Assembly: GCA_900315055.1 (NCBI GenBank)
Contig: OMXP01000001.1
Coordinates: 25,825-89,824 of the forward strand
From: an uncultured Lachnospiraceae bacterium
GTDB taxonomy: Bacteria; Bacillota; Clostridia; Lachnospirales; Lachnospiraceae
Direction: 5' to 3'
DNA length: 64,000 bases
Made by a program: the position numbers and the translations under genes. The notes beneath the pieces are model-generated. The model was given only the letters and a program-made list of their open reading frames with translations, was not told the DNA's origin and did not search any database. Within the stretch, counting starts at the first letter, position 1. Every line of letters begins with the position of its first letter. Shown in pieces: positions 3,438 through 26,280 of the stretch.

Positions 3438-3470
3438 AATGCCGCACGGGAGTTTCCCCTGCGGCATTTG
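3438..3470 (+). terminator. Putative intrinsic terminator hairpin
   Basis: AATGCCGCA...TGCGGCATT inverted repeat downstream of the DUF3048 gene; short T tract. Confidence 0.45.
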
Positions 3471-3491
3471 TCACGAAAGAGAGAAGAACCC

Positions 3492-4958
3492 ATGAAGATC
3501 AGAACACGTTATGCTCCGAGCCCGACCGGCCGCATGCACGTCGGCAACCTGCGCACCGCCCTGTACGCCTACCTCATCGCAAAGCACGAGGGAGGGGATT
3601 TCATCCTGCGCATCGAGGATACCGATCAGGGGCGTCTTGTGGAGGGCGCCGTGGACATCATCAAGCAGTGCCTCAAAGAGACGGGCCTTACCCCGGACGA
3701 GAGCCCGGATCTTGGCGGCCCTGTCGGCCCCTATGTGCAGAGTGAGCGCGTTGCTGCCGGCATCTACCGGAAGTATGCGGAGGAGCTCATCGCAAAGGGA
3801 GAGGCCTATTACTGCTTCTGCACCCCGGAGAGACTCGAGTCCTTAAAGACCGTCGTCGACGGCAAGGAGATCTCCGTCTATGACAAGCACTGCCTGCATC
3901 TGTCAAAGGAAGAGATCGAGGCGAACCTGAAGGCCGGAAAGCCCTATGTCATTCGCCAGAACAACCCAAGAGAGGGCACGACTACGTTCCACGACGAGCT
4001 CTACGGCGATATCACCGTGGACAATAAGGAGCTCGACGATATGATCCTCATCAAGTCCGACGGCTTCCCGACCTACAACTTCGCCAACGTCGTCGATGAC
4101 CACCTCATGGGCATTACGCATGTCGTCCGTGGCAATGAGTACATCTCGTCCACACCGAAGTACAACCGCCTGTACGAGGCCTTCGGCTGGGAGATCCCGA
4201 AGTACATCCACTGCCCGCTCATCACCGATGCCGAACACAAGAAGCTCTCGAAAAGATCCGGATACTCGTCCTATGAGGATCTCATCGATCAGGGATTCCT
4301 GCCGAATGCGGTGGTGAACTTCATCGCTCTTCTTGGCTGGAGCCCGGATTCCGACCGTGAGATTTTCTCACTCGAGGAACTGGTAAAGGAATTCGACTAT
4401 AAGAGAATCGGCAAGTCCCCTGCCGTGTTCGACTACGACAAGCTTCGCTGGATGAACGGCGAGTACCTGAAGGCCATGGACGCCAATGCGTTCTATGCCT
4501 ATGCGGAGCCGTACCTGAAGGAGGCCGTAACGAACAAGAACATCGACCTTCACCGGATCTCCGAGATGGTTCACACGAGAATCGAGGTCGGAACGGATAT
4601 CGCGGACATGGTAGATTTCTTCAGCAAGCTTCCGGACTACGATGTGGCGCTCTTCGAGAACAAGAAGCAGAAGGCAACCTTCGAGAACAGCGCGACTATC
4701 CTCTCCGGCATGCTGCCGATCCTTGCAGAGACACCGGACGAGGAGTTCAAAAACGACAACCTCTTCGAGAAGATCTCAACCTATGCCAATGAGCACGGCA
4801 TCAAGCCGAGAACCGCTGTCTGGGCAATGCGCATCGCCGTATCCGGAAAGAGCGTGACGCCTGCCGGTGCCAGCGAGATCATGGAAGTCCTCGGAAAAGA
4901 GGAGAGCATCGACCGCGTAAGATGTGGTCTTGAAAAGCTTCAGCAGATGACACAGTAG
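3492..4958 (+). CDS. gltX: Glutamate--tRNA ligase
   Basis: [16 protein letters not shown] (HIGH-like), LRIEDTDQ, and KLSKR (KMSKS-like) motifs. Confidence 0.97.
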
Positions 4959-4980
4959 TCATCAGCATCTGAAACACAAC

Positions 4981-5012
4981 GCCGTCAGGGGTAATTCCCT
5001 GGCGGCTTTTTT
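4981..5012 (+). terminator. Rho-independent terminator
   Basis: GCCGTCAGGG-taat-TCCCTGGCGGC stem followed by TTTTTT, just after gltX. Confidence 0.75.
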
Positions 5013-5090
5013 GCACACGTGTACAGGGATCGGGAAAGAACGAAAATCCGGCATCGGTATATTTTCCGCCGCCTGCACCTGATAGAATAG

Positions 5091-6569
<1,479 letters not shown>

Positions 6570-6629
6570 GCGCTGCCGCGAAGGGAAATCAGAACCGGGA
6601 CTTCCGATCCGTGATCAGGAAAAAACGAA

Positions 6630-6848
6630 ATGGAAGAGATATCGAGAATCGTCATCGAGCATTACTGCAACACGCACAGGACGAAAAAGGCAGAAATTCT
6701 ATCAAGACTTGTGGCAATGTCGTACGATCTTTCTGCCGAGGGAACAGACGCCGATGCAATCGAACTGGAAGAGCTGATCGACCGGGAGCGCAATCCCGAG
6801 CTGAAGGAGGCTCTCATCGATCTGGATGAATTTCTTTTCAGATATTGA
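6630..6848 (+). CDS. Small acidic hypothetical protein (72 aa)
   Basis: Plausible helical ORF filling the gap between GH1 and the methyltransferase; no recognised motif. Confidence 0.55.
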   Translation: MEEISRIVIEHYCNTHRTKKAEILSRLVAMSYDLSAEGTDADAIELEELIDRERNPELKEALIDLDEFLFRY

Positions 6849-6902
6849 CGATGTAAAGACGTGAACACCCTCTGCAGTGGAACCGGAACAGGAGGCTTTT
6901 TC

Positions 6903-7664
6903 TTGAGTAACATCGAATGGGATTCTCAGACGTACGCAAAACAGTTTTCCTTTGTCGCGGGCTATGGCAGTTCGCTGATTGATCTCCTCGACCGGAAGGA
7001 GAACATGACCTGCCTCGACCTAGGCTGCGGAAACGGAAATCTCACAAAGAAGCTGAAGGACGCCGGGCTTGATGTCATCGGCATGGACGACTCCGCATCG
7101 CAGATCCAAAAGGCAATGGAAGATCATCCGGATATCCGCTTTGTACAGGGCAATGCCTGCGACTTCCTGCTGGAGGAGCCGGTGGATGTTGTCTTTTCGA
7201 ATGCCGTGTTCCACTGGATTGACAAAGACCGGCAGAAAGACATGCTCTCCTGCGTATACAGGGCGCTGAAACCGGAGGGCCAGCTTGTCTTCGAGATGGG
7301 CGGGAAGGGAAACAATGCGCTCATTCACGGAAACCTTCGGCGCGCTTTTGCAAGGCGGGGGCTTGTCTATCGCTTCCCGTTCTATTTCCCGTCGATCGGA
7401 GAGTACGCATCTCTCATGGAGGGTGCGGGGTTTCTCGTGCGGACGGCGCTTCTCTTTGACCGGAAGACAAGGCTTATGGGGCCGGACGGCCTCTCCGACT
7501 GGATCAAAATGTTTGTCCAGACACCCTTTGAGGGAATTGATGCGGCAACATCGGAAGAGATCCGCCGCGAAGCTGTGGAAGAGCTTCGACCGAAGCTTTT
7601 TGAGGAGGGGGTGTGGTACGCCGATTACGTAAGACTCAGATGCAGGGCGGTGAAGATGCTGTAG
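6903..7664 (+). CDS. Class I SAM-dependent methyltransferase (trans-aconitate methyltransferase-like)
   Basis: LDLGCGNG motif I and DVVFSNAVFHWI. Likely TTG start at 6903 after RBS AGGAGG. Confidence 0.85.
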   Translation: MSNIEWDSQTYAKQFSFVAGYGSSLIDLLDRKENMTCLDLGCGNGNLTKKLKDAGLDVIGMDDSASQIQKAMEDHPDIRFVQGNACDFLLEEPVDVVFSNAVFHWIDKDRQKDMLSCVYRALKPEGQLVFEMGGKGNNALIHGNLRRAFARRGLVYRFPFYFPSIGEYASLMEGAGFLVRTALLFDRKTRLMGPDGLSDWIKMFVQTPFEGIDAATSEEIRREAVEELRPKLFEEGVWYADYVRLRCRAVKML

Positions 7665-7845
7665 AAGAAGCAATATTCGTTCCTGTCACCTGCTGTCATA
7701 AGAAAGCAGTCCTGATTTATCCGTTCTTTTGTTTTCTGATTGCCGGAAGGCTCCGGTATGCTATACTTTTTCCATAAGCGATGCTTCCATCTCCAGTCCC
7801 TGCCGGAACTGTGTATTCAGTATTCCAGTACGAGGCGGAGATACC

Positions 7846-9732
7846 ATGTCTGAACATACCCCACAAACCCCAAAACAGCACATCATCGGAAACCCGAAAC
7901 AAAACGAAGCCATACGCCACGGGAAGGGCCCCTGTCTTGTCCTTGCAGGTCCCGGCTCCGGGAAGACCTTTGTCCTGATCGAGCACTGCAGGTACCTGAT
8001 CCGGAACCTGCATGTTTGCCCCTCTGAGATCCTGGTCCTGACCTTCTCCCGGACGGCAGCCATCGAGATGAAGAGCCGGTATGAAGGAAAGTACGGAAAT
8101 GACACCGTATCCCCTGTCACCTTCGGAACCTTTCACGCGGTGTTCTACCGGATTCTTCAGCAGTCCGCAGCGGGGAAGGAGCTTCGTCTTCTCGACGAAA
8201 AGACCAAAGAGGGACTTCTCCGGAACCTGATCACCTCCTGTCACTACGACCGCCTCGAAGATCCCACGGCGAAGATGTCCGCGCTCTATTCCGAGATCCT
8301 GTACCATAAGCGATATCCAAATGCCCACTGGAAGTACTTCACGGACGAGGCGAACTTTCCGCGCCTGTTTCAGGCCTATGAGACCTTTCTTGCGGACGAG
8401 GGCTATATCGACTTTGACGACATGATCCGTCTCTGCAATGAGCTGTTAAAGAATGACGAGATCGTCCTTCGTTCCTGGAAGAGCCGCTTCCGGTACTTTC
8501 TTCTCGATGAGTTTCAGGACATCGATCCCGTGCAGCTCGAGACCATCGAACTGCTTGCGGGAGAGGAGAGAAACATCTTTGCGGTGGGAGATGACGACCA
8601 GAGTATCTACAGCTTTCGGGGCGCGAATCCGCTTGTCATGCAGACTTTTCTCGATCATAATCCGGGGCTGCACCTCGTGGAGCTGACCATCAACTACCGG
8701 TGCTCGGAGGAGATCCTGAAGCAGGCGGTAAGGCTGATCCGGGACAACGAGGAGCGTCTCGAAAAGCATCAGGTGGCAGAGCATAAGGGTGGTGTCCCGA
8801 TGCGGCTGGAAGGCTATGCCGATGAGGCAGAGCAGTTTGCAGAAATCATGAAAAGGATCCGGGAGAGCGTGCAGAAAGGAGAGAGAAGCAGTTCGGATTT
8901 TGCCGTGATCTTCCGCACGCACTATCAGCTGGAATCCTTTCGACGGTATCTTGTAAAACACGGCATGGAAAGCCGGGGTGATACGGTATTCCGCGAGCCG
9001 GCAGTGGGAGAGGCGCTGTCGGTGATCGTAAGCTACTACAGGGCAGCGCTGCAGCTGAAGCAGGGATATCTTTCCCGGGACGACTTCCTTCGGATCCTCA
9101 ACATCCCGCAGCGATACCTTCTTCGGCATACCTTTTCCAAAGAGTCCATGAACCCGAGGGAATATCTTCTTACGATCCAGCAGGGACGGCAAAGGGACGC
9201 ACTTCTTGATCTCTTTGATGACCTGCACCTTCTGTGTGATCTTGATCCGGTATCCTCGCTCTCGTACCTTCTCACCGACATGGAGCTTGAAACGGCGCTC
9301 TCTTCCGGACGAAAAAATGAAACCAAGGAAGCACTCGATGACCTGTTCGCCCATTTGAACAGCCTTGCGGCGTCCGCATCTTCGATTCCCAATCTTTTAT
9401 CCCTCCTGGAAAAGGAGCGGACGCTTCCGGTACAGGGGAGCAGAAGAAAGAGCTCCGGGACTGCAGATGGCGGCATTCACCTTCTCACCATGCACGCCGC
9501 AAAGGGTCTTGAGTTTCCCGTTGTTTTTCTTCCCTGTCTCAACGAAGGTGTGATCCCGGTGAGAAATGCAAAGACAAAGGAAGGGATCGAAGAGGAGAGA
9601 AGACTTTTGTATGTTGCGATGACACGGGCACGGGAGGAGCTGATTCTCACGTATGCAAACGGGTATCCCGGGCAGGACAGAAGGCCTTCCAGGTTCCTTC
9701 GGGCATTCCATGTCTATGCATCCTGGGAGTAG
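7846..9732 (+). CDS. SF1 ATP-dependent DNA helicase, UvrD/PcrA/Rep family
   Basis: AGPGSGKT, TFHA, DEFQD, VGDDDQSIYSFRGA, NYR, TMHAAKGLEF and EERRLLYVAMTRA motifs. Confidence 0.92.
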   Translation: MSEHTPQTPKQHIIGNPKQNEAIRHGKGPCLVLAGPGSGKTFVLIEHCRYLIRNLHVCPSEILVLTFSRTAAIEMKSRYEGKYGNDTVSPVTFGTFHAVFYRILQQSAAGKELRLLDEKTKEGLLRNLITSCHYDRLEDPTAKMSALYSEILYHKRYPNAHWKYFTDEANFPRLFQAYETFLADEGYIDFDDMIRLCNELLKNDEIVLRSWKSRFRYFLLDEFQDIDPVQLETIELLAGEERNIFAVGDDDQSIYSFRGANPLVMQTFLDHNPGLHLVELTINYRCSEEILKQAVRLIRDNEERLEKHQVAEHKGGVPMRLEGYADEAEQFAEIMKRIRESVQKGERSSSDFAVIFRTHYQLESFRRYLVKHGMESRGDTVFREPAVGEALSVIVSYYRAALQLKQGYLSRDDFLRILNIPQRYLLRHTFSKESMNPREYLLTIQQGRQRDALLDLFDDLHLLCDLDPVSSLSYLLTDMELETALSSGRKNETKEALDDLFAHLNSLAASASSIPNLLSLLEKERTLPVQGSRRKSSGTADGGIHLLTMHAAKGLEFPVVFLPCLNEGVIPVRNAKTKEGIEEERRLLYVAMTRAREELILTYANGYPGQDRRPSRFLRAFHVYASWE

Positions 9733-9844
9733 GTAAAATTACACCTTATAGATGTGTGAAAAAACAGACCGGTAACGGTATCGCAAAGGGGACAGTTGTG
9801 CTAAACTTGTGGAGTGTAATCAGACAAAGAGAGGCGGAAACCAC

Positions 9845-11836
9845 ATGTCACAAACATTTGAAACAGCTCCTGCCCACACCGTGCGGCCCGGAACCGTCGT
9901 TGATGAGGACGGTGTCATCTTCAGTACAGTCTTTCGCAGCTGCAAGTCCTGCGGGCTGATTCTGTATCGTCTCTCCGATCTCGACGAGACTGTCATTCCC
10001 TTCACCGATGAGTACCGCTACGGATCCCTCTATTCTGTCAAGGTCAAAGGCCTGAAGCCCGGCCGCTTCGCGTATCGCTACTACCGGGACGACTACTCCT
10101 TTGAGGATCCGTATGCGAGAGAGCTCATCACCCTCTCCACAAAGAACGGTCCCTTAACGGCCTGCCGTCTGTTCCCGCAGAACGAGAATGCGCTGCCGGC
10201 CTACGGCTATAACAGCGTCCGTCCCTGGGCGGATCAGGTGATCTATGTGATGCATGTGAAGGGATTCACGGCATCTCGCACATCCCACGTGGCACACCGC
10301 GGCACCTTCCGCGGCGTCACGGAGAAGATTGACGAACTGAAGAAGATCGGTGTCACGGCGATTGAACTGCTGCCCGTCTATGAGCTTCGCCCGGCAAGCC
10401 TCGGGAAAATTTCCGGCGCTCCGAATGCCGAGGAGAGCGAGAAGACGATGGCACAGGACGCCGCAAAGTATGTGACGGATGACTTCGGAACGCCAAAGCC
10501 GGAAGCGCAGAAGGTCAACTACTGGGGATTCGGCGAGGGGTGCTACTTTGCGCCGAAGCACGCCTATGCCTCCTCCAAATCCCCCCAGCAGGAATTTGCC
10601 TCCATGGTGGACATGCTCCATCAGAACGGCATTCAGGTTTACCTGCAGCTCTTCTTTACCGACGATGTCTCCAATCAGACCCAGCTCGAGACCGCACGAT
10701 TCTATGTGACCCACTACCATGTGGATGGATTCCACATCAAGGGGGCGGACTCCGCCTTAAAGACCATTGCCTCGGATCCGATGCTCTCGAACACGGCGAT
10801 TCTTTACTACGGCTTCCCCTATGAGGAGCTGCAGAAGGAGGACTCGGAGAATCCGACGGTCGGAAAGCCTTCGATCGCACACCTTTGCGAGTACACGGAC
10901 TCCTACATGTATCTTGTCCGCCGCTTCGTAAAGAGCGACAACAACGTGGCCCGGGAGTTCGCAAAGCAGTTCGTGACGGTGCCGGAGGTGCACGGGCGCG
11001 TGCACTTCGTGACCAACTACGACACGTTTACGCTCCGGGATCTTGTCTCCTACAACTGGAAGCACAACGCGCCAAACGGTGAAGAGGGCAGGGACGGCAA
11101 TGACAACAACTGCTCCTGGAACTGCGGCGTCGAGGGAAAGAGCCAGAAGAAGGACGTGCGGACGCTTCGTCTTCGCCAGATGAAGAACTTCATCGCCCTG
11201 AACTTCCTCTCCCAGGGGACTCCGGTTCTGACCGCGGGAGATGAGATGTGCAACTCGCAGGATGGCAACAACAACGCCTACTGCCAGGACAATGAGACCG
11301 GCTGGGTTTCCTGGAAGGAGACCGGAGAGAGCCGGAACGTCAATGAATTCACGAAGGACATGGCGGCCTTTAGAAGAGATCATGCGATCTTCCGCCGCCG
11401 GAATCCCTTCAAGTTCAATGATTACAAGGTCACGGGATATCCGGACGTCTCCTTCCACGGGAAGGATGCCTGGAAGCCGGACTTTTCCAACTACAGTCAT
11501 ACGTTCGGTGTGATGTACGATGAGGACTACGCGGAGGAGAATCCCACCCACAACCTCGTCTACGTCGCCGTCAACATGCACTGGCACAATCAGCTGCTCG
11601 GCGTGCCGACACCGCCGCCGGGACTGAAGTGGTATGTCACCTGCGACACCTTTGAGGAGAACTCGTTCTTCGAGCACCCGCAGCTGTTACCGGATCAGCG
11701 TCACATTTTTGTTAAGGGCAGAAGTGTGTGCATTCTGGTAACAAGCCCGGAGCCGGAGAAGTCGCAGAACGCCACGGCCATCGTGGCGATGACCAGCTAT
11801 TTTCATCGCTACACCGGCATCCAGAGCAGGTATTAA
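9845..11836 (+). CDS. GlgX/isoamylase-like GH13 protein with degenerate active site
   Basis: Retains IYVMHVKGFT, GVTAIELLPV, NYWG, FTLRDLVSYN.KHN, SWNCGVEG and GTPVLTAGDE...GNNNAYCQDN. Catalytic regions I-III are altered (see findings). Confidence 0.85.
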   Translation: MSQTFETAPAHTVRPGTVVDEDGVIFSTVFRSCKSCGLILYRLSDLDETVIPFTDEYRYGSLYSVKVKGLKPGRFAYRYYRDDYSFEDPYARELITLSTKNGPLTACRLFPQNENALPAYGYNSVRPWADQVIYVMHVKGFTASRTSHVAHRGTFRGVTEKIDELKKIGVTAIELLPVYELRPASLGKISGAPNAEESEKTMAQDAAKYVTDDFGTPKPEAQKVNYWGFGEGCYFAPKHAYASSKSPQQEFASMVDMLHQNGIQVYLQLFFTDDVSNQTQLETARFYVTHYHVDGFHIKGADSALKTIASDPMLSNTAILYYGFPYEELQKEDSENPTVGKPSIAHLCEYTDSYMYLVRRFVKSDNNVAREFAKQFVTVPEVHGRVHFVTNYDTFTLRDLVSYNWKHNAPNGEEGRDGNDNNCSWNCGVEGKSQKKDVRTLRLRQMKNFIALNFLSQGTPVLTAGDEMCNSQDGNNNAYCQDNETGWVSWKETGESRNVNEFTKDMAAFRRDHAIFRRRNPFKFNDYKVTGYPDVSFHGKDAWKPDFSNYSHTFGVMYDEDYAEENPTHNLVYVAVNMHWHNQLLGVPTPPPGLKWYVTCDTFEENSFFEHPQLLPDQRHIFVKGRSVCILVTSPEPEKSQNATAIVAMTSYFHRYTGIQSRY

Positions 11837-11845
11837 GGAGCACAG

Positions 11846-12472
11846 ATGGGAGAACCGAAGGAGGAACACCCGCCGATCACCTTAAAGAAGGCGGCAAAGC
11901 ACTTTGTGACGATCACAACGCACCGGGAACTCGTACGGGAGGGCTGCTTTGCCGTGGGCTTGTATTATCAGGGCCTGACCCACGACCTGTCCAAGTACAG
12001 CCCGACGGAATTCCTGGTCGGCGCACGGTACTATCAGGGAACCCGCTCCCCGAACAACGCAGAGCGGGAGGACATCGGCTACTCGACGAGCTGGCTGCAT
12101 CACAAGGGACGCAACCGTCATCACTATGAGTACTGGCTCGACTACACGACCCGCCCGGAGGACGGCGGTGATCATATCGGGGTCATTCCCTGCAAGATGC
12201 CGGGCCGCTGCGTCGTCGAGATGTTCATGGACCGGATTGCGGCGAGCAAGGTGTACCACAAAGGCACCTACACGCAGGCAGATCCCTGGAACTACTACGT
12301 GCAGGGTCACACCTGGAATGCCCTGCACCCGGAGACGAGAAAGCTCCTGGAAAAGCTCCTTCTGATGCTGAAGGACGAGGGGGAGGAGAAGACCTTCGCC
12401 TATATCCGTGCGCACCTGTACCAGAAGAAGGATCCTGTGGAGAAGCTGATCTCGAAGATAAAGAAGTCATGA
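11846..12472 (+). CDS. DUF5662-like, HD-type metal-binding protein
   Basis: H...HDLSKYSPTEF and HHKGRNRHHYEYW His-rich motifs. Confidence 0.7.
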   Translation: MGEPKEEHPPITLKKAAKHFVTITTHRELVREGCFAVGLYYQGLTHDLSKYSPTEFLVGARYYQGTRSPNNAEREDIGYSTSWLHHKGRNRHHYEYWLDYTTRPEDGGDHIGVIPCKMPGRCVVEMFMDRIAASKVYHKGTYTQADPWNYYVQGHTWNALHPETRKLLEKLLLMLKDEGEEKTFAYIRAHLYQKKDPVEKLISKIKKS

Positions 12473-13230
12473 ACGTCACAGACCACGCCGAAGCGTTTGA
12501 GGCCGCAAGAGAAAAAGTCCTGACTTTATCCCCGAGAGTCCGGGAGGGAATCGGCACGCAGAAGGAAAAGACCCTGCATGCGATCCTGAAAAACACCTTT
12601 GATCCGGATCCCTCCCACCAGGAGATCCCCATCGACGGGTATATCGCAGACATCTTTGACGGACACGGGATCATTGAGATTCAGACCGCAAACTTCGGAA
12701 ACCTTCGGGACAAGCTGAAGGCCTATCTTCCGGAGCACAAGGTTCTGGTGGTCTATCCCATCCCGCATCTTAAATATGTCACCTGGATCGATCCCGAAAG
12801 CGGAGAGCTCAAAGAGCGCAACAAGTCCCCGCGAAAGGGATCTTTTTATCGTGCGGAGAAAGAACTCTACCGGATCCGGCCGTTCCTTACAGATCCGAAC
12901 CTCTCGATCGATCTTGTCCTGTGCGATATGGAGGAATACCGGGTAAAAGACGGCTGGGGATCGAACGGGAAGCGCGGCTCCCACCGGTACGACCGCGTCC
13001 CGGTGCGTATTGCCGGAGAGAAGATCCTGAACACCAGGGAGGACTATGCGTCCCTTCTTCCGGAGAATCTGCCGGATCCCTTTACGTCGGGAGATCTCAG
13101 GACGGCACTTTCAAAGGGAAATTACGGCGTTGACTTCTCGACCTGGTGCCTGCTTCTGTCGGAGGTCGGTGCCATCGAACGGATCGGTAAGAAGCGCGGC
13201 CGCTCGTTTCTCTATCGGCAGAAAGTATGA
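12469..13230 (+). CDS. Putative PD-(D/E)XK-fold nuclease with C-terminal winged-helix-like domain
   Basis: EKTLH...EIPIDGYIADI...IEIQT resembles DUF559/CoiA-type restriction-endonuclease-like motifs. 4-nt overlap with the upstream gene. Confidence 0.55.
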   Translation: MNVTDHAEAFEAAREKVLTLSPRVREGIGTQKEKTLHAILKNTFDPDPSHQEIPIDGYIADIFDGHGIIEIQTANFGNLRDKLKAYLPEHKVLVVYPIPHLKYVTWIDPESGELKERNKSPRKGSFYRAEKELYRIRPFLTDPNLSIDLVLCDMEEYRVKDGWGSNGKRGSHRYDRVPVRIAGEKILNTREDYASLLPENLPDPFTSGDLRTALSKGNYGVDFSTWCLLLSEVGAIERIGKKRGRSFLYRQKV

Positions 13231-13273
13231 TACAATCCAATGTCTGGGATGTCCCAAAAAAGGAGCAAACACC

Positions 13274-14602
13274 ATGAACGACCATTTTGACAAAGATGAA
13301 ATTACCGACCGCTTCGTATCCTATGCGAGCGTCTTTACGCAGTCCGAGGAAGGACACACGGATACCCCGTCCACGGACCGGCAGCGGGATCTTGCAAGGA
13401 TCCTGACGAAAGAACTTACGGACATGGGAGCAGCGGATGTGTACTTTGATGAGCCGCACTGCTACGTCTATGCGACCATCCCCGGGAACATCCCGGCAAA
13501 GGAAGAGGAGCTTGCAAAACGCAGTGACAGGATCGAAAAGCACCGCGAGAACATGGCGCCGATCCTCGGTTTTGTCGCCCACATGGACACCGTGGACGCC
13601 GTGCCGGGAGCAAGTGCGGTGCACCCGAGGGTCATCGACTCCTATGACGGAAAGGACATCGTCCTGAACAAAGACCTTGGTATTGTCCTGCCTTCGTCCG
13701 AGTACCCGGATCTTACCCGCATGATCGGGAAGCGCCTTGTCGTGACCGACGGCACCTCGGTCCTCGGGGCCGATGACAAGGCAGGCGTCGTGCAGATCAT
13801 GGAGATGGCTTCCTTCTTCCTGTCTCACCCTGACATCCCCCACGGGACGCTCCGGATCATGTTCACGCCGGATGAGGAGACCGGAAACGGAACGGCAAAC
13901 GTCGACTTCGACCATTTTGCCTGCGACTATGCCTACACCATCGACGGCGGCAGGATCGGAGAACTCGAGTACGAGAACTTCAATGCGGCAACGGCCGTTG
14001 TGACGATCACCGGAAAATCCATTCACCCGGGATCCGCCAAGGGCGTCATGCGGAACGCCTGCCTTGTCGCAATGGAGTATGCAGCCCTTCTTCCCGCCCT
14101 GGAAACTCCGTACTATACGGAAGGATATGAGGGATTCTATCACCTCGAGGAGATGCAGGGCGTCACCGACAAGGCGGTTCTGACCTACATCATCAGAGAT
14201 CACGACAAGGGTATCTTCGAACACCGCAAGGACGTCGTCAAAAAGGCAGCCAGGGCCATCAATGCGCGGTACGGGGAGGACATCGTTGACGTCTCCCTGA
14301 AGGATTCCTACTACAACATGAAGCAGAAGATCGAGCCGCACATGCATCTTGTGGAGAACGCGAAGAAAGCCATGGAGAAGGTCGGTGTGACACCGATCAT
14401 CGATCCCATTCGCGGCGGCACCGACGGGTGCGTGCTCTCCTATGAGGGCATTCCCTGCCCGAACCTTGGAACCGGCGGCTACAACTATCACAGCCGCTAT
14501 GAATACGCCTGCATCGACGAGATGATGCAGGGCTGTGAGATTCTGATCCGTCTCGGATCCTACTATGCATCCTATGAACTCGATGAACCCAAGACCCATT
14601 GA
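13274..14602 (+). CDS. pepT: Peptidase T (M20B tripeptide aminopeptidase)
   Basis: GFVAHMDT, LGADDKAG, FTPDEE, YTIDGG, YENFNAA, IRGGTDG and YNYHSRYE motifs. Confidence 0.95.
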   Translation: MNDHFDKDEITDRFVSYASVFTQSEEGHTDTPSTDRQRDLARILTKELTDMGAADVYFDEPHCYVYATIPGNIPAKEEELAKRSDRIEKHRENMAPILGFVAHMDTVDAVPGASAVHPRVIDSYDGKDIVLNKDLGIVLPSSEYPDLTRMIGKRLVVTDGTSVLGADDKAGVVQIMEMASFFLSHPDIPHGTLRIMFTPDEETGNGTANVDFDHFACDYAYTIDGGRIGELEYENFNAATAVVTITGKSIHPGSAKGVMRNACLVAMEYAALLPALETPYYTEGYEGFYHLEEMQGVTDKAVLTYIIRDHDKGIFEHRKDVVKKAARAINARYGEDIVDVSLKDSYYNMKQKIEPHMHLVENAKKAMEKVGVTPIIDPIRGGTDGCVLSYEGIPCPNLGTGGYNYHSRYEYACIDEMMQGCEILIRLGSYYASYELDEPKTH

Positions 14603-16073
14603 CAACCCGGCAGAAGATGAGAAGGAGCTGAAGCGCCAGGAGACCTTCCTTGCCCTGGCCTCCCACCAGGTGGAGGAACTGAAACTCCTTCTTGGCCGCA
14701 CCCCGACCTTCTGTGTCGTGAACTTCGGCTGCCAGATGAATGCCCGCGATGCGGAAAAGCTCTCCGGCATCCTGAAGAGCGCAGGCTATGAAGAGGGGCA
14801 GGACGAGAGCGCGGACTTTGTGATCTACAACACCTGCACGGTGCGGGACAACGCGGACAACCACTTCTTCGGAAGGCTGGGCCGTGCAGCCCACTGGAAG
14901 AAGGACAACCCCTTCATGCGGATCGCGGTCTGCGGCTGCATGATGCAGGAAGAGAAGAACATCGAGAAGATCAAAAAAAGCTACCCCTATGTGGATCTCA
15001 TCTTCGGAACCCACAACATCTTCCGCTTCCCGGAATATCTGACGAAGGTCAATGAGCCTCTTCTTGCGGGAAGGCGCCGCCACAGACTCCTTGTCGATGT
15101 CTGGCAGGAGACAGACCGTATCGTCGAGGATCTTCCCGTTGAGCGAAAGTATCCGTTCAAGAGCGGTGTCAACATCATGTTCGGGTGCAACAACTTCTGC
15201 TCCTACTGCATCGTCCCCTATGTGCGTGGCAGGGAGCGAAGCCGCAAGGCAAAGGATATCGTGCGGGAGATTGAGTCTCTCGTAAAAGACGGCGTGGTCG
15301 AGGTCATGCTCCTTGGACAGAACGTGAACTCCTACGGCAATGACCTTCGGGCCCTGAACGATCCGGACGCGATGACCTTTGCAGAGCTTCTCGATGAAGT
15401 GGCAGACATTCCGGGCCTCAAGCGCGTGCGTTTCATGACCCCGCACCCGAAGGACTTTACGGACGATGTCCTGGAAGTCATGCAGAAGCATAAAAATATC
15501 GCGCGCCATGTCCACCTCCCGCTGCAGTCCGGCTCCTCCAGGATCCTGAAGGTGATGAACCGGCGATACACTAAGGAGCAGTACCTGACCCTTGCAGAAA
15601 AGATCCGCGAGGTTCTTCCCGATGCCGCGATCACGACCGACATCATCGCGGGATTCCCCGGCGAGACGGCAGAGGATATCGACGAGACGATCGATGTCAT
15701 CAGCAAAGTCCAGTACGACAATGCCTACACCTTCATCTACTCCCCGCGGACCGGAACCCCGGCAGCAGCGATGGCACAGGTACCAAAAGACGTGGTGCAG
15801 CAGGGATTTGACCGGATCCTTGCTGCCGTGCAGGAGAGTGCAAAGAAGAGGGCAGGCCTCTTGCAGGGAAAGGTCCTCTGCGGTCTTTGCGAGGAGATCG
15901 ATGAGCAGAAGAAGGGGTATGTCACCTGCCGCCTTTCCTCGAACATGATTGTCCATGTGCCGGGCGATGCGTCGATGATCGGCAGGTTCTATGATGTATC
16001 CCTCGATACGTGCATGGGCTTTTACTATTTCGGCCATGTGGTCCGGGAGAATGAGACCGGACTCGATGAGTAA
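14565..16073 (+). CDS. miaB: tRNA-2-methylthio-N6-dimethylallyladenosine synthase
   Basis: FGCQMN, NTCTVR, GCMMQ, radical SAM GCNNFCSYC and a C-terminal TRAM domain. Exact start is uncertain (14565/14574/14583). Confidence 0.93.
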   Translation: MHPMNSMNPRPIDNPAEDEKELKRQETFLALASHQVEELKLLLGRTPTFCVVNFGCQMNARDAEKLSGILKSAGYEEGQDESADFVIYNTCTVRDNADNHFFGRLGRAAHWKKDNPFMRIAVCGCMMQEEKNIEKIKKSYPYVDLIFGTHNIFRFPEYLTKVNEPLLAGRRRHRLLVDVWQETDRIVEDLPVERKYPFKSGVNIMFGCNNFCSYCIVPYVRGRERSRKAKDIVREIESLVKDGVVEVMLLGQNVNSYGNDLRALNDPDAMTFAELLDEVADIPGLKRVRFMTPHPKDFTDDVLEVMQKHKNIARHVHLPLQSGSSRILKVMNRRYTKEQYLTLAEKIREVLPDAAITTDIIAGFPGETAEDIDETIDVISKVQYDNAYTFIYSPRTGTPAAAMAQVPKDVVQQGFDRILAAVQESAKKRAGLLQGKVLCGLCEEIDEQKKGYVTCRLSSNMIVHVPGDASMIGRFYDVSLDTCMGFYYFGHVVRENETGLDE

Positions 16074-16085
16074 ACGGAGAAAACT

Positions 16086-18806
16086 TTGAAGATTTCGGAA
16101 GTGGACCTGAATCAGGTCTCCCCGATGATGCGGGAGTACATTGAGACCAAGAACCAGTACCCGGACTGCCTTCTGTTCTACCGGATCGGCGACTTTTACG
16201 AGATGTTCTTCGAGGATGCCGAGACGGTCTCGAAGGAGCTGGAGCTGACCCTGACGGGAAAGAGCTGCGGTCTTTCGGAGCGGGCGCCGATGTGCGGCGT
16301 CCCCTTTCATGCGGTGGACGTCTACATCGCAAAGCTTGTCGAGAAGGGGTACCGCGTTGCGGTCTGCGAGCAGATCGAAGACCCGCGCTTTGCAAAGGGA
16401 CTGGTAAAGCGGGCAATCACGAAGATCGTGACCCCGGGCACGATGACGAGCCTCGAGACGCTCGATGAGAACAGGAACAACTACCTGTTCTGTGTCTGCT
16501 ATGATGAGAAGGTGACGGGCATCGCTGTCTGCGATGTGTCGACGGGCGACTTCTATGAGACCCAGGTTTCCGGCCGGCAGAAGATCCTCGACGAGATCAT
16601 GAAATATGCTCCCTCGGAGATCATCTGCAACGAGGCGTTCCTTTCAAGCGGCGTCGACCTCGACGATCTCCGGACCCGGCTTGGCATCGCGCTGAACAGC
16701 CTCGACGTGCACTATTTCAGCGAGGCAACCTGCGTCAAGCTTCTTCTATCACATTTCAAGGTTTCGAGTCTTGTCGCCCTCGGCATTGACGACATGCGCT
16801 TCGGGAATCTTGCGGCGGGAGCGCTCCTCCAGTACCTGTATGAGACGCAGAAGAACGACCTGTCGAACATCACGAAGATCGACGCCTATGTGAGCGGCCG
16901 CTACATGCTCCTCGACACCGCAACAAGGAGAAATCTCGAGCTCACCGGAACCCTTCGGGAAAACAGGGTCAAAGGGTCGCTCCTGTGGGTTCTCGACCGC
17001 ACGAAGACCGCGATGGGAGCACGCCTTCTTCGCCAGTACCTCGAGCAGCCGCTCATCGATGCAAAGGAGATTGCAAGGCGCCAGGATGCGCTGCAGACAC
17101 TCCTTGACAACAGCGTCGACCGGGACGAGATAAGAGAGTATCTCCAGCCGATTTACGACATGGAGCGTCTCATGACAAAGATCTCCTTCGGTTCTGCCAA
17201 TCCGAGGGATGTGGTCTCGTTCCGGGAATCCCTGAAGATGATCTCCCCGATCCGGAAGGTCCTTGCCCCGTATGCGGGAGGCGATTCCGAGCTCTCCGAT
17301 ATCGAGAAGGATCTCGGAAACTTTGATGATCTCGTGGATCTTTTAACCCGCGCCATCGACGATGATCCGCCGATGGCGATGAAGGAAGGCGGGATCATCA
17401 AGGCAGGCTACAACGAGGACGTCGACCGGTATAGGAAGGCAAAGACCGACGGCAGGCAGTGGCTTGCCGATCTCGAGGAGAAGACACGGCAGGAGACCGG
17501 CATCAAGAACCTGAAGATCAAGTTCAACAACGTCTTCGGATACTTCTTTGAGGTCACAAACTCCTTCAAGGACCTGGTCCCGAAGGAATTCGAGCGAAAG
17601 CAGACCCTGGTCGGCTCCGAGCGGTACACGACGCCGGCCTTAAAGGATCTCGAGAACACGATTCTCGGTGCCCAGGACAAGCTGAACGACCTCGAGTACG
17701 AGCTCTTTGTCGAGGTGAAGAAGAAGATCGCGGAGAGGATCGAGGATATCCAGACGGCTGCCAAGGCCGTTGCACGCCTCGATGTTCTCTGCTCCCTTTC
17801 TCTTGTCAGTGAGAGGAACCGGTATGTCCGTCCGACACTGAATGACAAGGGACTCATCAAAATCAGGGGCGGCCGTCACCCGGTCGTCGAGGCGATGATG
17901 GACGGGGAGTTCATCTCCAATGACACGCTGCTCGATAACAGAAAGAACAGCATCGCCATCATCACCGGCCCGAACATGGCCGGCAAATCGACCTACATGC
18001 GGCAGGTAGCCCTCATCGTCCTGATGAACCAGATCGGCTGCTTTGTACCGGCAACGGAGGCGGATCTGTGCGTCGTCGACCGGATCTTTACGAGGGTCGG
18101 TGCAAGTGATGACCTGGGATCCGGCCAGTCGACGTTCATGGTCGAGATGAACGAGGTCGCGAACATCCTCCGCAATGCGACGAGCCAGTCTCTCATCATC
18201 CTCGATGAGATCGGACGGGGGACGAGCACCTATGACGGCCTCTCGATTGCCTGGGCGGTCGTCGAGTACATCAGCAACAAGAAGTTCCTCGGGGCGAAGA
18301 CCCTGTTTGCCACCCATTACCACGAGCTCACCGAGCTTGAGGGCAAGATGAACAACGTGACCAACTACTGCGTTGCGGTAAAGGAGAAGGGAGACGACAT
18401 CATCTTCCTTCGAAAGATCGTGCGCGGCGGTGCGGACAAGTCCTACGGCATCCAGGTGGCCCGCCTTGCAGGCCTTCCGGACATCGTCATCGACCGGGCA
18501 AAGGAGATCTGCGATCAGATCTCCGACAACGACATCACCGAGAAGGTGCAGAAGATCGAGGTGAAAACCGATTCGGCAGGCGGCAGAAAGAAGGTCACGC
18601 ACTATGACGACGTCGACATCGGGCAGATGAGCCTGTTTCAGAACACCTCCGAGCAGAACGTGCTCGATGAGCTGAAGGCTGTCGATATCCAGAACCTCAC
18701 CCCGATGGATGCGCTGAACACGCTCTACCGTCTGCAGAGCGAGCTGAAGAACGTCTGGCAGACGAAGGATATAAATCATGGCGAAGATACATCTGCTAAG
18801 CTCTGA
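16086..18806 (+). CDS. mutS: DNA mismatch repair protein MutS
   Basis: SPMM.EY, FYRIGDFYEMFFEDA, GPNMAGKSTYMRQ, DEIGRGTST and ATHYHEL motifs. TTG start. Confidence 0.98.
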   Translation: MKISEVDLNQVSPMMREYIETKNQYPDCLLFYRIGDFYEMFFEDAETVSKELELTLTGKSCGLSERAPMCGVPFHAVDVYIAKLVEKGYRVAVCEQIEDPRFAKGLVKRAITKIVTPGTMTSLETLDENRNNYLFCVCYDEKVTGIAVCDVSTGDFYETQVSGRQKILDEIMKYAPSEIICNEAFLSSGVDLDDLRTRLGIALNSLDVHYFSEATCVKLLLSHFKVSSLVALGIDDMRFGNLAAGALLQYLYETQKNDLSNITKIDAYVSGRYMLLDTATRRNLELTGTLRENRVKGSLLWVLDRTKTAMGARLLRQYLEQPLIDAKEIARRQDALQTLLDNSVDRDEIREYLQPIYDMERLMTKISFGSANPRDVVSFRESLKMISPIRKVLAPYAGGDSELSDIEKDLGNFDDLVDLLTRAIDDDPPMAMKEGGIIKAGYNEDVDRYRKAKTDGRQWLADLEEKTRQETGIKNLKIKFNNVFGYFFEVTNSFKDLVPKEFERKQTLVGSERYTTPALKDLENTILGAQDKLNDLEYELFVEVKKKIAERIEDIQTAAKAVARLDVLCSLSLVSERNRYVRPTLNDKGLIKIRGGRHPVVEAMMDGEFISNDTLLDNRKNSIAIITGPNMAGKSTYMRQVALIVLMNQIGCFVPATEADLCVVDRIFTRVGASDDLGSGQSTFMVEMNEVANILRNATSQSLIILDEIGRGTSTYDGLSIAWAVVEYISNKKFLGAKTLFATHYHELTELEGKMNNVTNYCVAVKEKGDDIIFLRKIVRGGADKSYGIQVARLAGLPDIVIDRAKEICDQISDNDITEKVQKIEVKTDSAGGRKKVTHYDDVDIGQMSLFQNTSEQNVLDELKAVDIQNLTPMDALNTLYRLQSELKNVWQTKDINHGEDTSAKL

Positions 18807-21051
18807 TACCATCAACAAGATCGCGGCGGGCGAGGTGGTCGAGCGCCCCTTAAACGTCGTGAAGGAGCTCACCGAGAATGCGATCGATGCGGGAGCCTCC
18901 GCGATCACGATCGACATCAAGAACGGCGGCATCGACATGATCCGCGTGACCGACAACGGCTGCGGCATCGAGGCGGATCAGGTCGTGAACGCGTTCCGGA
19001 GGCATGCGACCAGCAAGATCGAGGACGCGAAGGATCTGGAAAGCCTGACAAGTCTCGGGTTCCGCGGCGAAGCGCTCTCCTCGATCGCCGCGATCTCGGA
19101 GGTAGAGCTCATCACCAAGACGAGAGATGCGATTGTCGGGACGAGGGCGACAAACCTCTCCCTCTCCCTGGCAGATCCCCAGACAGCGGATGTCATCCCT
19201 CTCGAGATCTCCGAGGCCGGTGCTCCGGACGGGACCTCCGTTATCGTCCGGAACCTCTTCTACAACGTGCCGGTCCGGCGAAAGTTCCTGAAGTCCGCAC
19301 AGACGGAGGGAGCGTATATCACGGACCTTGTGGAGAAGCTTGCGCTCTCACATCCGGATATCTCCTTCCACTACACGATGAACCGGCAGGAGAAGCTCCA
19401 CACCACCGGAAACGGCAGGGAGAAGGAAGTCCTGTTCCGGATCTACGGACGGCAGATGGCAGATGCCGTCATCCCCATCGGCGCATCGGACGGGGACTTT
19501 ACCCTGACCGGCTTTCTCGGCCGTCCGGAACACGCAAGATCCTCCCGCTCCCAGGAGATCTTCTTTGTCAACAACAGGGTCCTTCGCTCCGAGGTGCTTT
19601 CCAAGGCCCTGGAGGAGGGGTACGGTACGGATCTCATGCAGCACCGGTTCCCGTTTGCCATCCTGCACCTAGGTGTCCCTGCAGACCTCGAGGACGTCAA
19701 TGTCCACCCGTCGAAGATGGAGGTTCGCTTCTCCGATCCGCGCCTTGTCTACGACTTTGTAAAGGATGCGGTTGACCGGACACTCCATAAAGTCGAGCTG
19801 ATCCCGAGATCCGGTTTTGAGACGCAGGAGGAAGAGGCAAAGAGGAAGCGACTTGAGGAGATGAAGAAGCAGGAGGCACTGAAGAATGCCCCCCACACGG
19901 AGCAGTTTGAGCAGCAGCGCCTGAAGGAGGAAGGGGTGAGCCTGCCTCCCCTTCGGACCCCGGTTAAAAAAGAAGATCCGAACGTGCTTCACGAGGACTT
20001 CAGGAAAACACCCACTGCCTTTGCGCCGTTTATCCACGAAGTGAAGAAGACGGCAGAAGAGGGTGCAGAGCCTCTGACAGAACAGGCAGCAGAGGAGGGA
20101 AAGAAGGCTTCCTCATCGGAAAGCAAGGCTTTTGCACCTTCCGCAGTTCCTGCTTCCGCGCCATCTTCTGATACCGCGGGCAAAGAAACAGAGGACTTTC
20201 TGTTCATCGACCGGACAGACGATGAGAAGAAAGACAGAACAGAAGAGACACAGGCTGTAAAGGAATCGGAAGACGGGATCGCAAAGGAGAAAAAATCCTC
20301 CGGAACCTTCGAGCAGGCAAGCCTGTTTCCGAATCAGGACGAGCCGGAGGAGAAGACCGAGGAAGAGAAGAATACGGAAGCTCTCATCGCCGATGCCGCG
20401 CGTCAGGCGGGGGATTCCGCCTATGTGGGAAGCCTTCAGGAGCATCTCTTCACGAAGGAAAACCGGAAGAACGTCCGCATCGTCGGCTGTGTGTTCAAAA
20501 CCTACTGGATCCTGGAAATCGGCGACCGGATGCTCCTCATGGACCAGCATGCGGCCCACGAGAAGGTAAATTTCGAGCACCTGATGAAGCGCCTTGTCAG
20601 CAGGCAGGGTCAGCAGCAGGACTCTCAGCTCCTGTCCCCGCCGCTTGTTGTCAACCTCACCGGAAAAGAAGAGGCGGCCTATGAGCAGTACCGGGACGTC
20701 TTTGCCCGCATGGGGTATGAGATTGAAAATTACGGCGACAATGCCTATGCGCTTCGCGCCGTGCCGCTCGAGCTCTACCGGAACGATCCGGATACGCTTC
20801 TTGTCGAGATCCTCGATGAGATTCTCTCCGAGAAGATGACCGGCACTCCGGCGGCGATTCTCTACCGGATTGCCTCCATGTCCTGCAAGGCGGCGGTCAA
20901 GGGCGGACAGCAGATCTCTGCTTCCGAGGCAAAGGTTCTCGTCGATGAGCTGCTCTCCCTCGACAATCCCTTCCACTGCCCCCACGGAAGGCCGACGATG
21001 ATCGAGTTCTCAGAGCGGGATCTCGAGAAGAAGTTCAAGAGGATCGTGTGA
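18778..21051 (+). CDS. mutL: DNA mismatch repair endonuclease MutL
   Basis: KIAAGEVVERP, ENAIDAG, HATSKI, GFRGEAL, DVNVHPSK, and endonuclease motifs DQHAAHEK...E, SCK, CPHGRP. Confidence 0.98.
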   Translation: MAKIHLLSSDTINKIAAGEVVERPLNVVKELTENAIDAGASAITIDIKNGGIDMIRVTDNGCGIEADQVVNAFRRHATSKIEDAKDLESLTSLGFRGEALSSIAAISEVELITKTRDAIVGTRATNLSLSLADPQTADVIPLEISEAGAPDGTSVIVRNLFYNVPVRRKFLKSAQTEGAYITDLVEKLALSHPDISFHYTMNRQEKLHTTGNGREKEVLFRIYGRQMADAVIPIGASDGDFTLTGFLGRPEHARSSRSQEIFFVNNRVLRSEVLSKALEEGYGTDLMQHRFPFAILHLGVPADLEDVNVHPSKMEVRFSDPRLVYDFVKDAVDRTLHKVELIPRSGFETQEEEAKRKRLEEMKKQEALKNAPHTEQFEQQRLKEEGVSLPPLRTPVKKEDPNVLHEDFRKTPTAFAPFIHEVKKTAEEGAEPLTEQAAEEGKKASSSESKAFAPSAVPASAPSSDTAGKETEDFLFIDRTDDEKKDRTEETQAVKESEDGIAKEKKSSGTFEQASLFPNQDEPEEKTEEEKNTEALIADAARQAGDSAYVGSLQEHLFTKENRKNVRIVGCVFKTYWILEIGDRMLLMDQHAAHEKVNFEHLMKRLVSRQGQQQDSQLLSPPLVVNLTGKEEAAYEQYRDVFARMGYEIENYGDNAYALRAVPLELYRNDPDTLLVEILDEILSEKMTGTPAAILYRIASMSCKAAVKGGQQISASEAKVLVDELLSLDNPFHCPHGRPTMIEFSERDLEKKFKRIV

Positions 21052-25323: not shown

Positions 25324-26280
25324 ATGAGTCCAATGTCTAGAAAACGAAACGACCAGGGCAGACCGAAGATCCCGGGCAGATATTTCCTGCTTCTTGTCAC
25401 GGCCATCTGTGTTTCCCTCATCGTAATTACGTACCGCTTTGACGTGGTCTCGACGTTTCTCAACAACACGGTGAGCTTTCTCGTCGTGCCGTTCCAGAGC
25501 GGGATCTCCAAGGTGGGAACCTACTTTGTCGACCGCAAGCAGCTCTCCGACAGCATCGATACGCTGCAGCAGCAGAACGAGCAGCTGACAAAGGAGAATG
25601 AGACGCTCTCCCAGGAGAATTCGGACCTGACCCAGGAACTCTCGGAGCTCGATGAGCTGAGGTCCCTCTATGAACTCGACGGAACCTACGGCTCCTATGA
25701 GAAGACCGGAGCCCGCGTCATCGCCAAGGATACCGGCAACTGGTACCACGCCTTTACGATCAACAAGGGATCGGACGACGGAATCGAGGTCGACATGAAC
25801 GTCATTGCGGACGGCGGCCTTGTCGGGCGCATCACCAGCGTCGGGACCGACTGGGCAAGAGTCGAGACCATCATCGACGATGACTCCAATGTATCTGCCA
25901 CCGTGCAGAATACGAGCAGCAACTGCATCGTCTCCGGCAATCTGACCCTGTACGGTCAGGGCACCATTGAATTTGCCCGTCTTACCGATACGCAGAACCT
26001 CGTCAACGTCGGCGACCGGGTTGTCACCAGCAACATCTCCGACAAGTACCTGCCGGGCATTCTCATCGGCTATGTCAACCGGATCCAGAAGGATCCGAAC
26101 AACCTGACAAAGTCCGGTCTTCTGACACCTGCGGTCGATTTTTCCCATCTTGACACGGTTCTCGTGATCATGACAAAGAAGCAGACCGTGCCGGAGGAGG
26201 CACAGGAAGAAAGTACGCAGACAGACACGCAGGCAGCGGATGCTTCCACCGAGGCTTCCACGGAGGCAGCAAGCCAGTGA
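25324..26280 (+). CDS. mreC: Rod shape-determining protein MreC
   Basis: N-terminal TM helix, coiled coil, ARVIAKD..NWY...TINKGS.DGI, GLVGRI, and VVTS...YLPGILIG motifs. Confidence 0.93.
   Translation: MSPMSRKRNDQGRPKIPGRYFLLLVTAICVSLIVITYRFDVVSTFLNNTVSFLVVPFQSGISKVGTYFVDRKQLSDSIDTLQQQNEQLTKENETLSQENSDLTQELSELDELRSLYELDGTYGSYEKTGARVIAKDTGNWYHAFTINKGSDDGIEVDMNVIADGGLVGRITSVGTDWARVETIIDDDSNVSATVQNTSSNCIVSGNLTLYGQGTIEFARLTDTQNLVNVGDRVVTSNISDKYLPGILIGYVNRIQKDPNNLTKSGLLTPAVDFSHLDTVLVIMTKKQTVPEEAQEESTQTDTQAADASTEASTEAASQ

Follow-up and report, generated by a model that had tools for sequence, protein, structure and literature searches.

Within a 64,000-nucleotide (nt) stretch of DNA from an uncultured Lachnospiraceae bacterium (positions 25,825 to 89,824 of contig OMXP01000001.1, assembly GCA_900315055.1; the whole stretch is hereafter called the window), we analyzed a gene on the forward strand at positions 9845-11836 that encodes a relative of the glycogen debranching protein GlgX. 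Its open reading frame is uninterrupted, running from an ATG at 9845 over 663 codons to a TAA at 11834-11836, and the 663-aa product (P0001) belongs to a family that keeps the GlgX fold and lacks the catalytic set of glycoside hydrolase family 13 (GH13); we refer to it here as dead GlgX. The start is best placed at the ATG at 9845, because a GAGAGG motif sits 10 nt before it; a GTG at 9809, further upstream in the same frame, is a less probable start. The features of the gene are listed below; residue n of the protein corresponds to window coordinate 9845 + 3(n-1), and the reference for the four former catalytic regions is the active GlgX encoded in the same genome (contig C49, 732 aa, 662-665 bits on the TIGR02100 model).

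9829-9834, forward strand: Shine-Dalgarno-like GAGAGG, 10 nt 5' of the ATG at 9845 (direct reading of the sequence)
9845-11836, forward strand: coding sequence of dead GlgX, three domains (open reading frame, TIGR02100, PDB matches, AlphaFold2 model, Foldseek)
9845-10174, forward strand: N-terminal β-sandwich, CBM48-like, residues ~1-110 (model strands within residues 6-108, with a predicted local distance difference test score, pLDDT, >90)
10412-10480, forward strand: family-specific 23-residue insert relative to the genome's own GlgX, residues 190-212 (pLDDT about 47; conservation 0.17)
10646-10663, forward strand: former region I, LQLFFTD against LDVVFNH, with QLFFTD at residues 268-273; Asp replaced by Gln268, His by Asp273
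10721-10741, forward strand: former region II, VDGFHIK against VDGFRFD, residues 293-299; Arg replaced by His297, the nucleophile Asp by Lys299 (codon 10739-10741)
10799-10819, forward strand: former region III, ILYYGFP against LIAEAWD, residues 319-325; the acid/base Glu replaced by Tyr322 (codon 10808-10810)
11015-11029, forward strand: former region IV, NYDTF against CHDGF, residues 391-395; His replaced by Tyr392, Asp393 kept
11024-11314, forward strand: GlgX/isoamylase signature block, residues 394-490, the best-conserved part and common to active GlgX
11420-11509, forward strand: start of the C-terminal domain, residues 526-555, with conserved positions specific to the dead family

We found that dead GlgX genuinely descends from the GlgX/isoamylase (GH13 isoamylase-type) fold and that the resemblance is not a matter of chance, since it matches TreX/GlgX structures with an expected value (E) of 1e-57 and reaches 283.6 bits, in three pieces, on TIGR02100, the GlgX equivalog model with a cut-off of 640.9 bits. 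The best hit of the PDB sequence search was TreX (2vnc, 1.6e-57), followed by Streptomyces venezuelae GlgX (7u39) and plant ISA1; matches to GlgX, TreX and ISA1 ranged from 1e-49 to 1e-57, and those to ISA2 chains were far weaker (1e-21 to 1e-23). The AlphaFold2 model, built on 53 family members, has a pLDDT of 89.3 and a predicted template modelling score of 0.88, and in Foldseek its top matches were again ISA1, GlgX and TreX (E = 1e-51 to 1e-44, template modelling score about 0.75). The protein thus combines an N-terminal β-sandwich, a (β/α)8 barrel and a C-terminal β domain with the signature segments of the subfamily, and it is about 32% identical to the GlgX of its own genome. The N-terminal domain aligns weakly to residues 24-89 of TreX in the PDB sequence search and is too diverged for Pfam to detect CBM_48 in it; across the whole protein, Pfam matches no more than 40 residues of the alpha-amylase domain, plus ISOA1-3_C below threshold.

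A preliminary description of the gene, made by a model from the letters alone, had presented it as an isoamylase/GlgX homolog deprived of its catalytic machinery in an intact frame, and the four motifs it quoted (QLFFTD, VDGFHIK, ILYYGFP and NYDTF) all lie where it had placed them. In the AlphaFold2 model, the strands β3, β4 and β5 of the barrel span residues 264-271, 295-300 and 318-321, respectively, and because of the positions of β4 and β5 we assign Lys299 and Tyr322 to the GH13 nucleophile and acid/base places. The assignment of region III to ILYYGFP, and hence to Tyr322, holds since the family alignment and strand β5 agree on it. A pairwise HMMER alignment had offered the tetrapeptide SENP as the acid/base motif AEPW; we rejected it, and the Glu of this segment is not a shifted catalytic Glu, because 43 of the 62 family members have a gap in its place. 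The question raised by the preliminary description, whether the catalytic Asp and Glu were merely shifted, was answered in the negative: the alignment of 62 family members contains no conserved shifted or replacement catalytic acid in the barrel, and in the conservation comparison the catalytic face of the barrel showed no acidic residue whose conservation is confined to the dead family.

The losses extend to the loops of the active site. Compared with the genome's own GlgX, 44 residues of an active-site loop are deleted directly after region I, which explains the earlier remark that little sequence separates regions I and II, and a further 14 residues are missing after region II. The protein therefore stands outside GlgX on two counts, falling below the TIGR02100 cut-off and lacking the GH13 catalytic set. 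Taken together, its residues point to a pseudoenzyme that is probably inactive on alpha-glucans.

The same pattern is found throughout the family. More than 100 full-length relatives, 35-67% identical, were recovered in a protein search, and the nucleophile Asp is missing from all of them. We compared 62 family members with 56 active GlgX proteins from many phyla over seven catalytic and transition-state columns: these read DHRDEHD in 56/56 active proteins and Q-D-H-K-Y-Y-D in the protein of the window, and the catalytic set is missing in 62/62 family members, so that the substitutions are common to the orthologs, with replacements that differ by lineage. The nucleophile column of the dead family holds K, M, L, I, V, N, S, T, F or Y, and the acid/base column Y, H, D, T, S, L and sometimes E, or is deleted; Asp393, retained in the window's protein, is variable across the family. 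At the former active-site positions the most frequent residue reaches just 16-58%. In a maximum-likelihood tree, whose root was not fixed, dead and active sequences are parted by a single branch with a Shimodaira-Hasegawa-like approximate likelihood ratio (SH-aLRT) support of 100, and branches are longer inside the dead clade. The dead family thus has a single origin.

Conservation is concentrated elsewhere. As the preliminary description had noted, the GlgX signature segments are well preserved, and they correspond to residues 394-490, where the motifs FTL.D..SYN.KHN..NGE..RDG...N.SWNCG.EG and GDE...GNNN.YCQDN...W..W can be read. Sixty-eight positions are conserved in the dead and the active sets alike, most of them within this block, which scores 0.65-0.73 for conservation in either set. 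In the opening part of the C-terminal domain, in turn, seven positions (D526, G531, D534, S536, A542, W543 and G555) are conserved in the dead family and not in active GlgX, and residues 511-540 score 0.52 in the dead against 0.37 in the active set; residues 526-555 may thus be regarded as a candidate family-specific interface.

Two groups of homologs deserve separate mention. In a subclade of about 570-600 aa, of the Mediterraneibacter/Faecalimonas type (L056-L065, L107, L118, L122 and L135), region III is fully deleted, and region IV retains its His but has Thr or Asn instead of the Asp; decay of the pocket has taken another course in these proteins than in the protein of the window. A 712-aa homolog on a 3.9-kb contig (P0051) joins a PHP domain (PF02811) to an isoamylase C-terminal domain, which may be a fusion or a gene-calling artefact.

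The distribution of the family was determined with a profile of dead GlgX (A1), a genome being counted as a carrier when its best match had E ≤ 1e-100. Among the representatives of 201 genera of the Lachnospiraceae, 164 gave a match to the profile and 159 were carriers. True GlgX proteins match A1 as weaker pieces (1e-62 to 1e-98), and the shorter orthologs of 570-600 aa, which adjoin DUF5662 genes and are also catalytically dead, yield about 350 bits as pieces. The score of the dead-family hidden Markov model alone was rejected as a discriminator, as the genome's own active GlgX scores 431 bits, and proteins were classified as dead or active by the catalytic columns. Across a class-wide sample of 300 scored genomes, matches occurred only in the Lachnospiraceae (five of the nine sampled, plus the window's own genome), and at the A1 threshold dead GlgX was absent from the 290 sampled genomes of the other families of the class. 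In the order-level sample, matches outside the family did not exceed 328 bits; a check of six, which came from three other families, showed each to be a catalytically intact GlgX, the rest lying in the same score range, and none of the sister families sampled yielded dead GlgX. Members that bear a name all belong to the Lachnospiraceae, among them Butyrivibrio, Blautia, Roseburia, Acetatifactor, Mediterraneibacter, Oribacterium, Pseudobutyrivibrio, Lachnobacterium and Faecalimonas, the others being unclassified.

Selection was assessed from Nei-Gojobori pairs on one codon alignment per gene. The ratio of nonsynonymous to synonymous substitution rates (dN/dS) of dead GlgX is 0.066-0.10 at unsaturated dS of 0.14-0.58, and in the same genome pairs it is 0.045-0.083 for DUF5662 and 0.083-0.125 for DUF8091, the two genes that follow dead GlgX. 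Neutral decay is excluded, because the ratio remains at 0.066-0.10 despite fast evolution; the earlier suggestion that the gene is maintained by selection was thus borne out, and the decay in orthologs that would have spoken against it was not observed. Both properties by which a pseudoenzyme is recognized, a catalytic loss common to the orthologs and purifying selection, were found.

The genome of the window also encodes an active GlgX (C49), as the preliminary description had anticipated, together with a type I pullulanase (C85) and GlgB (C133). Using TIGR02100 with E ≤ 1e-100 as the measure of presence, we found GlgX in 57 of the same 201 genomes. Fifty-four genomes have both proteins, 105 have dead GlgX without GlgX, three have GlgX without dead GlgX and 39 have neither, counts that are confounded by relatedness and genome completeness and support a qualitative conclusion only. 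GlgX is seldom found without its dead paralog (54/57 have both), while the dead paralog mostly occurs without GlgX, and in many GlgX-negative carriers it is the single GlgX-like match in the whole genome. As two thirds of the carriers have no GlgX, the role of dead GlgX is independent of the active enzyme.

We consider it likely that dead GlgX is a conserved, GlgX-derived pseudoenzyme which most probably acts by binding rather than by hydrolysis. It descends from a GlgX of the GH13 isoamylase type that lost its nucleophile, acid/base and transition-state residues and the two loops shaping the catalytic groove, in a single event near the base of the Lachnospiraceae, and it has retained the three-domain fold and the signature block. 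Purifying selection has since maintained it across most of the genera, with free drift at the positions of the old active site. The protein would bind or scaffold through conserved surfaces outside the old -1/+1 pocket, the candidates being the signature block (residues 394-490) and the beginning of the C-terminal domain, a domain that serves for dimerization in ISA1 (PMC12218847). A role as binder or scaffold is suggested because catalysis appears to be gone, the pocket is unconstrained and the groove loops are deleted, whereas the fold is kept and selection is strong.

Several points weigh against this interpretation. The inactivity of dead GlgX is deduced from what is known of GH13 enzymes, and a few members (e.g., L093 and L099) do carry a Glu in the acid/base column, though never together with the nucleophile Asp. 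The proposed binding surfaces were read from one-dimensional conservation patterns alone. The closest ortholog from a congener is just 64% identical and the branches are long, a rate of evolution that also fits weaker constraint. Finally, the 105 carriers without GlgX were counted on draft genomes, some of which are incomplete.

The preliminary description had proposed that the protein is a bacterial counterpart of plant ISA2, a non-catalytic subunit partnering an active GlgX encoded elsewhere. In its broader form, this proposal has dead GlgX forming a hetero-oligomer with GlgX, or else with the type I pullulanase, and aiding substrate binding or stability. Dead GlgX shares with ISA2 both the fold and the kind of loss, and ISA2 chains are among its structural matches (E about 1e-41); rice ISA2, whose catalytic triad reads I/D/S, raises the activity of ISA1 (PMC12218847). 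The presence of active GlgX, type I pullulanase and GlgB in the window's genome, and of the dead paralog in 54 of the 57 GlgX-bearing genomes, agrees with such a helper function. Yet 105 of the 159 carriers are devoid of a GlgX-type gene, many of them of any second GlgX-like match, and in the loci examined dead GlgX never adjoins GlgX, pullulanase or any other glycogen gene. An obligate partnership of the ISA1/ISA2 type with GlgX cannot be its general role, because of these 105 carriers. A facultative partnership would be compatible with the finding that dead GlgX accompanies GlgX in 54/57 genomes. The protein is also nearer to GlgX and ISA1 (E = 1e-57) than to ISA2 (1e-21 to 1e-23), so that any resemblance to ISA2 is convergent. 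The catalytic residues are replaced in both, and neither obligate co-occurrence with an active paralog nor membership of the ISA2 clade was found. We therefore regard an ISA2-like helper function as unlikely and prefer a binding pseudoenzyme that works independently of GlgX.

Another alternative arises from the genes that surround dead GlgX, of which the following are closest.

7846-9732, forward strand: divergent UvrD/PcrA-family helicase, 112 nt upstream of dead GlgX (Pfam UvrD-helicase and UvrD_C; synteny)
11835-11840, forward strand: AAGGAG, Shine-Dalgarno sequence of the DUF5662 gene, overlapping the TAA of dead GlgX at 11834-11836 (direct reading)
11846-12472, forward strand: DUF5662 gene, 208 aa (PF18907, E = 7e-34), adjoining dead GlgX in other genera
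12469-13230, forward strand: DUF8091-type gene, 253 aa, its start overlapping the DUF5662 stop (ATGA); precomputed annotation assigns PF26351 to homologs in this place

These genes belong to a block of 10-12 genes (window ~3468-21051) that is conserved in distant Lachnospiraceae (L050, L054, L171, L172 and L174). Its order is a MutS-domain-V gene (mutS2-like), rnhA, dut, gltX, the UvrD-like helicase, dead GlgX, DUF5662 and DUF8091, followed by pepT (not always present), miaB, mutS and mutL. In the window only, a GH1 glycosidase gene (5154-6569) and a methyltransferase gene (6861-7664) lie between gltX and the helicase, which are adjacent in the other loci. Against the equivalog models of rep, pcrA and uvrD, with cut-offs of 911-1144 bits, the helicase reaches only some 270-320 bits (~319 on rep and pcrA); it is a divergent family member rather than a canonical PcrA. 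A defence system made of the helicase and its uncharacterized neighbors was considered and rejected, since PADLOC gave the helicase only generic GajB/UvrD matches and did not recognize the three remaining proteins. The surrounding block is core-genome synteny of a housekeeping kind.

Dead GlgX is translationally coupled to DUF5662 and DUF8091 in an operon-like arrangement, because its stop codon lies inside the AAGGAG of the next gene and the two following genes overlap in ATGA; no terminator-like site was found between dead GlgX and the downstream genes. DUF5662 was present in 161 of the 201 genomes. It is more conserved than dead GlgX (50-65% identity across genera), and its invariant residues H19, H26, H46-D47, H85-H86, H92-H93, E95, D99 and D129 form a His/Asp-rich set that suggests a putative metal site. 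The AlphaFold2 model of DUF5662 is mainly α-helical (pLDDT 86.3), and neither a PDB sequence match nor a fold match was found for it (best Foldseek E = 1.2). Some NCBI records name it 'catalase', and a literature search found no paper mentioning the family. The 253-aa DUF8091-type protein itself gave nothing in Pfam, NCBIfam, PADLOC or PDB searches. In eight genomes of other genera (L175-L182, i.e., G148, G091, G060, G194, G083, G168, G047 and G154), dead GlgX lies away from all the neighbors it has in the window, mostly after an ABC-F ATPase gene, with exonuclease III upstream in several, and before TraX or flanked by LuxS/P-type cation ATPase genes, and DUF5662 is located elsewhere. Genes of glycogen metabolism adjoin dead GlgX in none of the loci examined.

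The three genes might accordingly be read as a Lachnospiraceae-specific, co-translated module serving a process other than debranching, for which the GlgX fold was recruited as a scaffold or ligand sensor. The stop codon within the next Shine-Dalgarno sequence and the subsequent ATGA overlap would fit such a module, the more so as stop/start overlaps recur at the loci of distant homologs and the order dead GlgX-DUF5662(-DUF8091) is kept in genera whose dead GlgX proteins are just 34-39% identical. Its co-occurrence with DUF5662 (both genes in 136 of the 201 genomes, dead GlgX only in 23, DUF5662 only in 25, neither in 17) and the many invariant His, Asp and Glu residues of the latter, in a confident model without a PDB fold match, point the same way. 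However, the whole block of 10-12 genes is conserved and the adjacency is possibly inherited synteny; each gene exists without the other in the 23 and 25 genomes just mentioned; and a hand comparison of gene places showed that in a large minority of the genomes with both genes they lie on separate contigs or far apart, as in the eight genomes with another context. We give this module a low probability, and it is improbable that dead GlgX serves such an undescribed system with DUF5662 and DUF8091 as its scaffold or as its ligand sensor. If it did, the fold of a former glucan enzyme would report or tether some target, such as the state of glycogen, a nucleotide or another protein, in a process distinct from debranching, and its constant place among genes of DNA maintenance (the helicase and mutS/mutL here, xth in the alternative context) might be more than synteny.

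Strong purifying selection would equally be expected of a neo-functionalized enzyme whose barrel has gained another catalytic apparatus or substrate, and four residues (E409, N470, D526 and D534) are conserved only in the dead family. We hold this to be very improbable: the residues lining the pocket vary by lineage, with the low top-residue frequencies of 16-58%, one subclade has region III deleted, and the acids conserved specifically in dead proteins lie in the C-terminal domain and not at the catalytic face of the barrel. A GlgX duplicate decaying toward loss, to which only the fast sequence evolution would conform, has a negligible likelihood in view of open full-length frames at all loci extracted and aligned, a dN/dS of 0.07-0.10, and a single, ancient origin with family-wide retention; the stops counted in many A1 matches are probably overrun past the ends of open reading frames. 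A function as receptor of cyclic di-GMP, considered on account of S. venezuelae GlgX, was dropped, the binding residues being specific to Streptomyces (PMC9530166).

A conserved pseudoenzyme of this breadth has consequences for annotation. Members of the family are labeled 'hypothetical protein', 'alpha-amylase family glycosyl hydrolase', 'isoamylase' or 'glycogen operon protein' in the databases, and a literature search on GlgX/GH13 pseudoenzymes and on the catalytic residues of Lachnospiraceae debranching enzymes found no paper describing it. All but the first of these labels suggest an enzyme, yet hydrolysis of the GH13 kind is precluded by the residues that dead GlgX carries. In the gut and the rumen, Lachnospiraceae rank with the most abundant bacteria, and predictions of their starch and glycogen metabolism commonly draw on inventories of carbohydrate-active enzymes; with hydrolase labels on a gene that does not encode a GH13 hydrolase and is present in about four fifths of the sampled genera, such inventories would therefore overcount debranching capacity. 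Carriers have been cultured, e.g., Butyrivibrio fibrisolvens DSM 3071 (WP_073386092.1), which opens the function of dead GlgX to direct testing.

The closest known proteins are, by ancestry, GlgX, TreX and isoamylase and, by analogy, plant ISA2. With the former (TIGR02100), dead GlgX shares homology, the three-domain fold and the signature block with SWNCG.EG and GDE...GNNN.YCQDN. It differs from them in that each of the seven catalytic or transition-state positions is either altered or free of constraint, the groove loops of 44 and 14 aa are missing, and the sequences form a separate clade restricted to Lachnospiraceae that scores far under the TIGR02100 cut-off. Plant and algal ISA2 resemble it in their isoamylase fold, replaced catalytic triad, retention by selection and non-hydrolytic action (PMC12218847). 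Dead GlgX, in contrast, is of independent origin, bacterial and cytoplasmic, and occurs mostly in genomes without an active paralog. ISA2 also has an extra N-terminal domain (PMC12218847), which dead GlgX probably lacks. It is a bacterial counterpart of ISA2 with an origin of its own and, in contrast to the plant protein, endures in genomes that do not encode the active paralog.

Two further systems invite comparison. GlgD of Firmicutes is a non-catalytic paralog of GlgC (ADP-glucose pyrophosphorylase), encoded beside glgC and assembled with it into a GlgC/GlgD heterotetramer; it is likewise a retained dead paralog of a bacterial glycogen enzyme, but dead GlgX lies outside any glg operon and often lacks its active paralog. 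The heavy chains of amino-acid transporters, rBAT and 4F2hc, are non-catalytic proteins with a GH13 fold and illustrate the reuse of this barrel as a non-enzymatic partner, although they are eukaryotic, membrane-anchored and derived from another GH13 subfamily. Set beside these systems, dead GlgX is a bacterial, independently evolved and partner-independent GH13 pseudoenzyme, and would lend itself well to the question of which role a GH13 fold can play after catalysis has been lost.

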